A stretch of DNA of 64,000 nucleotides from a virus, in IMG/VR virus record IMGVR_UViG_3300045988_145033, positions 32,001 through 96,000 of that record; one strand, given 5' to 3'. Position numbers and translations under genes: made by a program. Each line of letters opens with the position of its first letter. Position 1 is the stretch's first letter. The notes under the pieces are model-generated. The model had not been told where the DNA came from, did no database searches, and saw nothing but the letters and a program-made list of their open reading frames with translations. Below, piece by piece: positions 1,201 to 3,444 of this stretch.

Positions 1201-1538
1201 AGAATATCACCTCTTATTGATTGTGTATAATATTCTCTTAATATTTCTGAATCGCTTTTACCATCGTCCTTTCTACCTTGCTTAAGTTCTTCTATTAAAT
1301 CTTTATGAATAACTCTTACTATATCATCTTCTATTGTAGGTGGTCTAAATACCACCTCATCTTTCTTGGGTTCTTTATACCCAATATATTCCTTTACAGC
1401 TTCCCCTTGTTCTATCCATTTTTGAGCAAGTTCACCTTCAGGGTGTGTTATGAATTCCATTATATTTTCTTCATTTTCTACCATAAATTTATTTATCAAA
1501 CTCATTACTAATTTATTACTCATTTCTGTTACCTCCAT
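1197..1538 (-). CDS. hypothetical protein
   Basis: 113-aa ORF with good SD. Confidence 0.65.
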   Translation of the reverse strand: MEVTEMSNKLVMSLINKFMVENEENIMEFITHPEGELAQKWIEQGEAVKEYIGYKEPKKDEVVFRPPTIEDDIVRVIHKDLIEELKQGRKDDGKSDSEILREYYTQSIRGDIL

Positions 1539-3444
1539 TTTTCTTATTATCTTCTTCTATTTCCTTTTTGTATTTTTCTTCATAAGCTTTCTTGTATGCT
1601 TCATGGTTACTTCTATCGGCATATAATACATCATAGTTCATATGTGATACAGGTTTAAAGTTATCAGGAGATGTCATAACCTCATCAAAGTATCCATAAC
1701 ATAACTTATTTACTATTCCTGTATTATTAACTATACCCTTTTTGTATCCTACAAATGTATAAGACTCATCATCTCTTAAATCTCTTGACCAATCAGGCTT
1801 ATACATTTCTTTGTCTTTATTAGTCACAAATAGACAGTTCTTTAATACAGTTTCTCCAACTATGTATGGAGATTTTAAAAGCTTATTAAGTTCAGCTACT
1901 GGGTCTTTAAACTTAGCTGGATTTTCAAATATAGCCTTTATTTCATTGTATACTTTAGACTTTCTTTTGTTCTTATATACAACGTGCAAGAAGTTATCAT
2001 CTCTTAGCTCAAGTACACCGTCAGTTTCTACAGGGTACACCATTCCATTTACTTCTACGTCAAATCCGTTATAGCATACTCTTTGACTGTCTTTTCTTGG
2101 GTCATCTATTCTATACTTTTCATTTATCACAATAGTACCATTACAGTATATAATATCTGTGTGCTTAACTTGGACATCGATAGTATTATCGTGTCTAAAT
2201 ATTATATTTTCTATAATAGTTATCATATTGTGCTTAGATGATAGATAGTTTTGACCCTCTGGTGCAATGTACTGCTTTACAAACTGAACTCCTAAATTCA
2301 TATTAGCACCAAGTGGTCCTTTTACATTATCAAAATATGTATGCTCTCCTGTACAGTATCTACATATACCTTCTTTAGAATTACAAGTAAAAGGACTTCT
2401 AACCTTAATAGTTTTCCCAATTAAGTCAGTTCTATCTTTAGTTATAAGCTCGATATCTCTTGGGTGATTACTGTCGTGTATCATATATCTATCATTTAGC
2501 TTATCAAGAACTTCTTGTGATTCTACAAAGTATTCTACATATGCTTTTGAATCACACATATAATCTGGATTAGGATTTAAGTAGTTTGGATTGTTAAGAT
2601 ATGATATAGTCTTTTGAAATGCACCCGGGTCTTTTATCTCAAGTTTAGTTATTATAGTTGCACATCTTGAGATATATGATTCATAATAGAAGCTCTCAGG
2701 TGTTGATATTCCACGAAGCCAAGACTCTTTCTCTATATTAGGTATAACTTCATCTTGGTCGGGACGAGAACCTATCATAAACAGACAGTCAACAAACTGT
2801 GCAAGACGAAGTCCAGTTCCTGCTTTTACAAGAGAACGCAAAGGTTGTATATCTTTTTCTTCGACTACTTTTGATATGTAATCAAGTGTGTGCTTTTTAA
2901 GTTCTTCCACTTCAAATAAACTCATATCGTCTCTTTTAACTGGACCGTTTATAATCCAGTCTTTAAGGGTTTCATCAGCATCACAAAGTTCAAATATATC
3001 AAGCATTGATATATCTATCATCTTTTTATTATCGACTACCCAAGCAAACTGAACAAACGCTTCTTTTATTTCACCTACGATAGATGCTACGTCAAAGAAC
3101 TTCATATTCATTCTATTAAAGCACTCATCTTTCACCATTTCCACATATTCATTTTGACTATCAACATTACCAGAACCCGTGAATATAAAATCCTCAAGTC
3201 TTTGCTCTTGTCCGTCGAGTATATGGTGCTTATCAAGAGTTGTAAATAAAAGCCAGTTCATAATAGCTTTAGCAAACTTCATTTTAGCTATCTTCTCACC
3301 TTTATAAGTTACAGTAACTCTAGTTTCAAGCTTTCCTATATCCCAGTAATCATCAACAAACAACTTTGGTGAAAACTCTGCAATAAGTGGTAAACCTAGT
3401 TCATTTACCTTACTCCAGACATCTGCCATTACTTCATTCTTCAT
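1516..3444 (-). CDS. multisubunit RNA polymerase beta-prime-like subunit, C-terminal part
   Basis: KVRSPFTCNSKEGICRYCTGEH aligns to the bacterial beta-prime RSPLTCetrhGvCakCYG segment; GANMNLGVQFVKQYIAPEGQ follows where beta-prime has [18 protein letters not shown]. Confidence 0.65.
   Translation of the reverse strand: MKNEVMADVWSKVNELGLPLIAEFSPKLFVDDYWDIGKLETRVTVTYKGEKIAKMKFAKAIMNWLLFTTLDKHHILDGQEQRLEDFIFTGSGNVDSQNEYVEMVKDECFNRMNMKFFDVASIVGEIKEAFVQFAWVVDNKKMIDISMLDIFELCDADETLKDWIINGPVKRDDMSLFEVEELKKHTLDYISKVVEEKDIQPLRSLVKAGTGLRLAQFVDCLFMIGSRPDQDEVIPNIEKESWLRGISTPESFYYESYISRCATIITKLEIKDPGAFQKTISYLNNPNYLNPNPDYMCDSKAYVEYFVESQEVLDKLNDRYMIHDSNHPRDIELITKDRTDLIGKTIKVRSPFTCNSKEGICRYCTGEHTYFDNVKGPLGANMNLGVQFVKQYIAPEGQNYLSSKHNMITIIENIIFRHDNTIDVQVKHTDIIYCNGTIVINEKYRIDDPRKDSQRVCYNGFDVEVNGMVYPVETDGVLELRDDNFLHVVYKNKRKSKVYNEIKAIFENPAKFKDPVAELNKLLKSPYIVGETVLKNCLFVTNKDKEMYKPDWSRDLRDDESYTFVGYKKGIVNNTGIVNKLCYGYFDEVMTSPDNFKPVSHMNYDVLYADRSNHEAYKKAYEEKYKKEIEEDNKKNGGNRNE

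Follow-up and report, generated by a model that had tools for sequence, protein, structure and literature searches.

We analysed a 64,000-nucleotide (nt) stretch of virus DNA (positions 32,001 to 96,000 of IMG/VR record IMGVR_UViG_3300045988_145033; hereafter the window), in which a minus-strand gene for a protein of 642 amino acids (aa) overlaps a small open reading frame (ORF) at either end (Table 1). The gene and, within it, the string RSPFTCNSKEGICRYCTG followed by a G-loop-like region had been picked out in a reading of the letters alone (the sequence-only reading), and both the exact ORF and the string were found. Behind RSPFTCNSKEGICRYCTG, GVQFVKQYIAPEGQNYLSSKH (residues ~385–405) aligns to the N-terminal helix of the bacterial trigger loop. 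Judged from homology and a structural model, the product of the gene is very probably the C-terminal half of the catalytic, beta-prime-like subunit in a phage non-virion RNA polymerase (nvRNAP), orthologous to gp154 of Bacillus phage AR9.

The single sequence matched AR9 g154, which is annotated as 'non-virion RNAP subunit, beta' C-terminus' (RNAP, RNA polymerase), at E = 4.9e-24 (tblastn; ~26–27% identity), and PDB 7S00_D of the AR9 nvRNAP (631 aa) at E = 6e-23 among PDB sequences. With a family profile built from 20 sequences, which also defines the invariant columns given below, the match to 7S00_D reached E = 5e-71 and was colinear over residues 91–616 versus 87–630. The same profile found phiKZ gp74 over the region from bridge helix to trigger loop (E = 4e-14), many bacterial beta-prime chains (E from 1e-7 to 1e-3) and cyanobacterial RpoC2 (8syi_Z, E = 1e-5). 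Among PHROG families the protein matched phrog_3015, 'RNA polymerase beta subunit', at 4.6e-27. An AlphaFold2 model of the protein had a mean pLDDT of 77.7, and the top five Foldseek matches to it were all AR9 nvRNAP beta-prime-C (gp154) chains; their E-values ran from 5e-20 (7s01_D) to 2e-11 and, for what is a multi-domain and flexible protein, their TM was ~0.37–0.48. Further matches of the model were to the phiKZ nvRNAP (8que_D, 3.9e-10) and to Thermus beta-prime (~4e-9). Similarity to RpoC was present in both profile and structure, and the 7S00_D and 7s01_D matches bear out the assignment, in the sequence-only reading, to the C-terminal beta-prime part of a split phage multisubunit RNAP of the AR9/PBS1 type.

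The closest proteins in GenBank phages were those of JD-Fnp7, 4, 6 and 1, at 97–98% aa identity (tblastn); these are Fusobacterium nucleatum phages of 175–180 kb. The remaining tblastn matches were all to Bacillus, Staphylococcus and Listeria phages of the AR9/PBS1 type (24–29%). The whole window is colinear, in reversed orientation, with ~76.4–139.1 kb of JD-Fnp4 at ~84–93% (~90%) nucleotide identity, and the host is therefore Fusobacterium and not, as had been supposed, a Firmicute. The orthologous gene in that phage, JDFnp4_124, is annotated as 'DNA-directed RNA polymerase subunit beta''. Public assemblies contain the exact 642-aa protein; clustering at 90% identity puts it in a group of 183 members, among them nr entries named beta-prime. 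With near-identical copies already so named in GenBank, the gene is an expected member of a known family, and the claim that it was a first does not hold. A scan of 1.84 billion cluster representatives returned 448 relatives at E ≤ 1e-30, mostly stand-alone proteins of ~600–750 aa among the matches listed; to judge by these sequences, the family is one of widespread, separately encoded beta-prime-C subunits. Codon differences from the JD-Fnp4 ortholog were synonymous in 107 cases and non-synonymous in 15; the beta-prime-C gene has therefore been under purifying selection.

Residues were mapped by aligning the 642-aa protein with E. coli beta-prime and AR9 gp154 (Table 1). In the model, the F-loop and bridge-helix region forms helices at 249–269 and 273–283. 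Cys297 and the three cysteines of the RSPFTCNSKEGICRYCTG motif are placed like C814, C888, C895 and C898 of E. coli beta-prime, which form its second Zn site and from which a Zn-ligand role is predicted for the four residues here. None of the four varies within the family, and the same holds for R349, S350, P351 and G366 of the motif; the only four cysteines of AR9 gp154 stand at the equivalent positions. The trigger-loop helix carries the invariant residues Q398, L401, S402, K404 and H405, the last of which aligns with the catalytic H936 of E. coli.

The beta-rich insertion in the trigger loop was modelled as strands over residues 424–489 at pLDDT 88–94. The putative counterpart in AR9, the trigger-loop insertion domain (TLID), comprises gp154 residues 400–508 (PMC9209446), and our profile alignment, made on sequence, runs through gp154 ~375–470 across the insertion. 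The conserved segment towards the C-terminus, which includes the invariant E531, is also colinear with E. coli beta-prime 1245–1265, a match that is weak taken alone. It is followed by a Lys/Glu-rich tail (residues ~577–642) of low model confidence. In all, 34 columns are invariant in a family that reaches down to 20% identity, and these include all the elements close to the catalytic site. Alignment and model together show a protein predicted to supply the F-loop, bridge helix, Zn-II site, trigger loop with a phage-specific insertion, and C-terminal segment.

Table 1. Features of the beta-prime-C locus and related elements, in window coordinates.
Feature	Position	Strand	Basis or remark
Beta-prime C-terminal subunit gene, phage nvRNAP (very probable)	1516..3444	-	642 aa, ATG start; ORF list, AR9 gp154 homology
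F-loop and bridge helix, residues ~227–283, RPDQDEVIPNIEKESWLRGIS...YISRCATIITKLEIKDPGAFQKTISYL	2596..2766	-	colinear with E. coli beta-prime 747–805 and AR9 gp154 225–283
Cys297, first ligand of the beta-prime Zn-II site (presumed role)	2554..2556	-	aligns to DDCG(T/S)HE: E. coli C814, AR9 C294
RSPFTCNSKEGICRYCTG motif, residues 349–366, with Cys354, Cys361 and Cys364	2347..2400	-	aligned with E. coli VRSVVSCDTDFGVCAHCYG (C888/C895/C898) and AR9 SPTTCASNEGVCRKCYG
Trigger-loop N-terminal helix, residues ~383–406, NLGVQFVKQYIAPEGQNYLSSKHN	2227..2298	-	bacterial alignment; model helix 384–404
Beta-rich insertion in trigger loop, residues ~410–495 (approximate boundaries)	1960..2217	-	at AR9 TLID position
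C-terminal conserved beta-prime segment, residues ~520–545, KSPYIVGETVLKNCL	1810..1887	-	strong alignment to AR9 gp154
87-aa ORF (ORF87), first cistron	3434..3697	-	11-nt overlap with beta-prime-C start; JDFnp4_123 in relative
113-aa ORF	1197..1538	-	23-nt overlap with beta-prime-C 3' end
Early-promoter-like motif ATATATTATAAATGTAG	3737..3753	-	39 nt before ORF87 start codon; identical site in JD-Fnp4
Terminator-like hairpin GGTGGGGTTTATCCTCACC, then T-run	3794..3812	-	closes preceding gene, isolates ORF87/beta-prime-C unit
Terminator-like hairpins of the 3–8 kb block	3812-3794, 4623-4606, 5349-5329, 6479-6461, 7317-7297	-	hairpin scan
~60-bp repeated element	6184-6240, 6426-6480, 19139-19195, 19494-19550, 40163-40220	-	8 copies in JD-Fnp4
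Late-like motif sites	11–66 nt upstream of genes at 11993, 13315, 18822, 33035, 35538, 38012, 38094, 42154, 46679, 52659, 61662, 61753
Late-promoter-like motif AACAgcttaaaTA, 7-nt spacer variant	52711..52723	+	upstream of 52758-53681 / virion-RNAP beta-prime operon
Predicted virion RNAP beta-prime, N and middle parts fused, 930 aa; paralog	53693..56485	+	DGDLDGD at residue 465

The window holds a second beta-prime-like gene, as the sequence-only reading had said, for a 930-aa protein with the motif DGDLDGD. It had been taken for the N-terminal partner of the 642-aa protein; we found instead a paralog, belonging to the virion RNAP, with a bridge helix and Zn site of its own. Its residues 2–294 matched phrog_2986 (1e-51) and residues 486–920 phrog_2962 (3e-47). 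Against AR9, residues 6–392 matched g145, the N-terminal beta-prime part of the virion RNAP (tblastn, E = 9e-43), and residues 595–925 matched g264, its middle part (1.6e-36 by tblastn, 1.7e-40 by phmmer). In phmmer searches run in both directions, g154 preferred the 642-aa protein (5.8e-26, compared with 0.27 for the 930-aa protein) and g264 the 930-aa protein (1.7e-40, compared with 9e-6 for the 642-aa protein). From these reciprocal preferences, the 642-aa protein is therefore assigned to the nvRNAP and the 930-aa protein to the virion enzyme.

It might still be proposed that the 930-aa and 642-aa proteins form, as N- and C-terminal halves, the split beta-prime of a single phage RNAP: both are beta-prime-like, they are encoded in the same window, and the catalytic DGDLDGD is present in the 930-aa protein and absent from the 642-aa protein. 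We consider this highly improbable. Over residues ~775–870 the 930-aa protein has its own bridge helix GYSRGKAPEVGGAMAKLAGYVYQTMRL, a DCG cysteine (C808) and RSVLTCKTPLVCNKCAG (C861/C867/C870), followed by the start of a trigger loop, and positions 283–426 of the 642-aa family profile align to its residues 786–920 (E = 6e-11). One and the same beta-prime segment is therefore present in both proteins, which overlap and must be paralogs, not complementary halves. Their orthologs belong to different AR9 enzymes, JD-Fnp4 encodes another N-terminal beta-prime part with GDFDGD, and the promoter-like motifs described below differ, being early for the 642-aa gene and late for the 930-aa gene. Such likeness as AR9 g264 has to the 642-aa protein lies in the paralogous bridge helix, Zn-II site and trigger-loop start; the g264-like part differs from it in ending in the trigger loop, in being fused here to the N-terminal part and in being the ortholog of a virion-enzyme subunit.

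The 930-aa protein stops inside the trigger loop, ~50 residues past its Zn motif, and a small C-terminal beta-prime piece should therefore exist elsewhere. That the 642-aa protein is this missing piece of the virion RNAP would fit the separate C-terminal beta-prime expected in jumbo phages (PMC7598289), and we identified no separate C-terminal piece within the window. We give this explanation just as little credence as the previous one, since known virion C-terminal beta-prime pieces are small and comprise the extreme C-terminus only (SPN3US gp244), whereas the 642-aa protein has a bridge helix and Zn site that the 930-aa protein already possesses, has the nvRNAP subunit gp154 as its full-length colinear best match, and is preceded by an early-type motif where virion genes have late-type ones.

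A split after the DPBB domain has been described as common to both RNAPs of jumbo phages (PMC7598289, a 2020 review). The parts of the virion beta-prime are encoded separately in AR9 (g145 and g264) and in other multisubunit-RNAP (msRNAP) phages but are fused here, so that, by sequence, the virion beta-prime of the Fusobacterium phage clade is without this 'common' split. Among GenBank phages, a match to 80% or more of the 930-aa protein at one locus was found solely in the four Fusobacterium phages.

The N-terminal partner of the 642-aa protein was sought outside the window. In JD-Fnp4 we found it as JDFnp4_1, a 482-aa protein with GDFDGD at 407–414 that matched phrog_2987 (1.5e-13) and AR9 g270 (3.6e-6), and a JDFnp4_1-like protein is the predicted true partner. 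The beta halves, for which the sequence-only reading had recommended a search of the rest of the genome, were recovered in part: the C-terminal half of the nvRNAP beta is JDFnp4_27 (phrog_3295 at 6e-42, AR9 g089 at 1.6e-27), and the N-terminal half went undetected in this relative. The virion beta is JDFnp4_5 (1484 aa; phrog_3148 at 5e-110). PHROG scans of 30 window ORFs revealed no further RNAP subunit, and scans of the JD-Fnp4 candidates _28, _30, _37, _44, _7, _9 and _15 gave no RNAP match. The characters of a gp154-family member were found together, namely sequence homology, closer kinship to the non-virion than to the virion paralog, a fold like that of the solved subunit, the elements of the catalytic site and, in the relative's genome, a separate partner.

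GenBank labels for RNAP subunits are inconsistent in JD-Fnp4, with 'alpha' on four subunits, 'beta'' on JDFnp4_124 and 'RNA polymerase-like protein' on JDFnp4_1. The label 'subunit alpha' on JDFnp4_5, _27 and _84 is at odds with their beta-like or beta-prime-like character; no alpha homolog is expected in this enzyme family.

Several observations weigh against assigning the gene to an AR9-type nvRNAP. A Pfam scan of the 642-aa protein matched no family at E ≤ 1 and, Pfam being silent, the identification rested on PHROGs and PDB profiles. The trigger-loop arginine (E. coli R933) is Ser402 here, as it is a serine in AR9. JDFnp4_1 lies outside the region that the window covers, and our knowledge of the partner comes solely from a relative at ~90% identity. 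AR9 g105 (the N-terminal half of beta) and gp226 (the specificity subunit) gave nothing significant in phmmer searches of all ORFs of JD-Fnp4 and the window, and hidden Markov models of 18 gp226 homologs and ~115 g105 homologs returned only noise from the same two sources (best E 0.02 and 0.16, respectively). Lastly, the terms 'non-virion' and 'early' and the promoter roles are drawn from orthology and motif position. The N-terminal half of beta and the gp226-like subunit may be too diverged for detection. Two gp226 candidates were set aside: a 187-aa JD-Fnp4 ORF at noise level (E = 0.02), and a 315-aa window ORF at 61753-62700 (+) that matched only the C-terminal region of gp226 (E = 0.021, 7 bits) and was rejected as unsupported.

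The lack of detectable Pfam RNAP domains and an identity of ~12% to bacterial beta-prime could also suggest a decaying or captured fragment of cellular rpoC without a polymerase role, but this is the least credible of the alternatives given the strong purifying selection (107 synonymous versus 15 non-synonymous differences), the 34 invariant columns with their catalytic-site-proximal elements at identities down to 20%, the hundreds of full-length stand-alone relatives, and a closest solved relative that belongs to an active enzyme (PMC9209446).

The setting of the gene would fit early expression. GGAGG stands 7 nt before the beta-prime-C ATG and a Shine–Dalgarno sequence also precedes ORF87, which had no PHROG match; the overlap of the two reading frames suggests translational coupling. 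The 113-aa ORF is probably co-transcribed with the beta-prime-C gene, and an ORF with somewhat different boundaries (JDFnp4_125) is annotated over the same position in JD-Fnp4. Upstream of ORF87 lies the motif ATATATTATAAATGTAG. The early promoter of the AR9 virion RNAP is AAATATATATTAT-(6N)-G (PMC5312081), to which ATATATTATAAATGTAG is close in sequence, not identical, and an AR9 early promoter stands before g154 too.

At up to 3 mismatches, ATATATWWTAAATGTAG occurred 25 times in the window (7.5 expected; none of 100 shuffles reached 25); at up to 2 mismatches, 8 of the 9 window matches were sense-oriented in upstream intergenic DNA, where 0.19 were expected. In JD-Fnp4 the early-like motif also precedes the gene for the C-terminal half of the nvRNAP beta, and a 1-nt variant precedes that for the N-terminal beta-prime part. 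From sequence and position, we infer that ATATATTATAAATGTAG is a putative early promoter, on evidence that, for all the motifs described here, consists of positional statistics. A scan for sigma-70-type promoters found 32 sites against 39.6 expected; with no enrichment, host-type promoters are therefore not indicated.

Terminator-like sites were frequent in this part of the window (17 in positions 1–8000, against 2.3 expected). Across 3–8 kb on the minus strand, nearly every gene is a module of its own, made up of an early-like motif, the gene and a terminator-like hairpin.

A ~60-bp element recurs in the window and in JD-Fnp4 (Table 1), always ~80–90 nt upstream of small genes. It has the form TTTTTcATTTCAATTATATATAATAAATGTAGA...GAGTAAACTTAAGAAGGCTTAAG and combines a palindromic-core subtype of the early-like motif with a conserved leader containing a CTTAAG-AAGG-CTTAAG hairpin. 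The element may be a strong immediate-early promoter with a structured 5' leader, or a small RNA.

A second motif marked other genes. The late consensus of the AR9 nvRNAP is AACA-(6N)-TA/G (PMC5312081), and AACA-N6-T(A/G) was present in 35 of 80 upstream regions without the early-like motif, compared with 7 in shuffles. Matches to AACA-N6-TR were sense-oriented upstream of genes in 13 of 25 cases in the window (0.53 expected) and, within ≤80–100 nt, in 36 of 70 cases genome-wide in JD-Fnp4 (~1.5–1.75 expected). The count of AAACANNNNNTTR over the whole window showed no overall enrichment (10, against 11.7 expected); the late-motif signal is therefore positional (upstream) and not compositional, and it was retested by compartment. 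Relative to AACA, the motif prefers T at −5 and A at −3 and −1. The genes behind it include those for the portal, the tail sheath, a 3029-aa virion protein and other presumed structural proteins. We infer a late-promoter function for AACA-N6-TR and for AACAgcttaaaTA before the virion-RNAP beta-prime operon, the spacing of the latter being off by one. The 3029-aa ORF (23946-33035, minus strand), which has a late-like motif upstream, is labelled 'papain-like cysteine protease' in JD-Fnp4 and aligns over a short stretch to the AR9 tape-measure protein g204.

By analogy with the biology of AR9 and phiKZ (PMC5449584, PMC5312081, PMC7598289, PMC9209446), an injected virion RNAP, with the 930-aa protein as its beta-prime, would transcribe the early unit of promoter-like motif, ORF87, beta-prime-C and small ORFs. 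The 642-aa protein would then assemble with the separate N-terminal beta-prime part (GDFDGD, JDFnp4_1-like), the N- and C-terminal halves of beta (the latter JDFnp4_27-like) and a sigma-like specificity subunit into an nvRNAP without alpha or omega subunits. Once complete, this enzyme would transcribe the late and structural genes, including those for the virion RNAP, from AACA-N6-T(A/G) promoters.

AR9 gp154 (PDB 7S00/7S01/7UM0/7UM1), with homologs in PBS1, Staphylococcus S6/PALS_2 and Listeria LPJP1, is the nearest known system. The two proteins are of similar length (642 versus 631 aa) and colinear over ~530 residues, and they have in common the F-loop, bridge helix, four Zn cysteines, an LSxKH trigger loop and probably an insertion within it, in a stand-alone C-terminal half that starts after the DPBB split. 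The loci share an AT-rich early-type motif before the beta-prime-C gene and a nearby, divergent gene for the catalytic subunit of a family-B DNA polymerase. The differences are an identity of only ~26–27%, a host in Fusobacterium (Fusobacteriota) and not Bacillota, a genome of 175–180 kb compared with ~250 kb, the lack of an intron in the gene, the extra Lys/Glu-rich C-terminal tail, and gp226 and gp105 homologs that are undetectable in JD-Fnp4.

phiKZ gp74 (PDB 7OGP/8QUE), the beta-prime-C of that phage's nvRNAP, has the same subunit role and the same split but, by the profile and Foldseek values given above, is much more distant from the 642-aa protein than is AR9 gp154. Phages of the phiKZ type have TATG late promoters (PMC5312081) and a chimallin nucleus (PMC10299810), while AR9/PBS1 and PALS_2 are msRNAP phages without chimallin (PMC10299810). 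The late-type motif found here is the AACA of AR9 and not the TATG of phiKZ; general PHROG scans of the window ORFs, which were not aimed at chimallin, gave no chimallin annotation. As in cyanobacterial RpoC2, the C-terminal half is encoded apart from the half that bears DFDGD (PMC7598289). Of the C-terminal half of bacterial beta-prime, the bridge helix, Zn-II site, trigger-loop helix with its catalytic His and C-terminal segment are conserved here; what differs is the ~12% identity without a Pfam-level match, the trigger-loop insertion, and membership of an enzyme family free of alpha and omega.

Searches of the literature on multisubunit RNAPs of Fusobacterium phages found nothing relevant. 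The isolation paper for JD-Fnp1–5 nowhere mentions a polymerase, contains nothing on DNA modification and states that no related phages were found. The assignment of the Fusobacterium phage genes to two distinct polymerases, the AR9-like promoter grammar and the fused virion beta-prime are absent from the searchable literature. For the beta-prime-C gene itself, the main gain is a correct and more precise annotation. For the phages, it places the large F. nucleatum myophages JD-Fnp1/4/6/7 and their many metagenomic relatives among those with two multisubunit RNAPs of their own, as a deep relative of the AR9/PBS1 group in a different host phylum with AR9-like early and late promoter grammar. Their genomes, at ~175–180 kb, are below the 'jumbo' threshold, and the clade is present in many metagenome assemblies. 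Such phages would be expected to need no host RNAP for transcription and to be unaffected by rifampicin, which is relevant to their proposed use in therapy against F. nucleatum.

A broader proposal, which we regard as doubtful, is that the clade runs the full AR9-type programme of two polymerases, with an nvRNAP that reads AACA-N6-T(A/G) on the template strand, as in AR9, through a specificity subunit whose sequence has diverged beyond detection, and even with deoxyuridine-substituted DNA like that of the nearest characterised relatives. The last point is speculation, and tblastn gave no matches to the AR9 genes for Ugi, deoxycytidine monophosphate deaminase and 5'(3')-deoxyribonucleotidase. 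In the deoxyuridine-DNA phages (PBS1/AR9, S6 and phiR1-37 type), uracil-dependent recognition of the template strand goes through a gp226 helix with a conserved valine. If true, the proposal would carry such recognition of promoters over to phages of a medically relevant Gram-negative anaerobe and, together with the fused virion beta-prime, would bear on how and when the RNAP splits of jumbo phages arose.

Two further sets of genes were noted in the window. The family-B DNA polymerase is split between a catalytic part at 7776-10001 (+), similar to AR9 g152, and an exonuclease-containing part at 35595-38021 (-), similar to AR9 g132; as in AR9, the gene for the catalytic part is divergent from the block that contains the nvRNAP beta-prime-C gene. 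A radical S-adenosylmethionine protein of 250 aa is encoded at 5360-6112 (-). It has weak PHROG matches to QueE-like families and to families of anaerobic ribonucleotide reductase activases, is labelled 'pyruvate formate-lyase activating enzyme' in JD-Fnp4, and has two tandem copies of the ~60-bp early element upstream.

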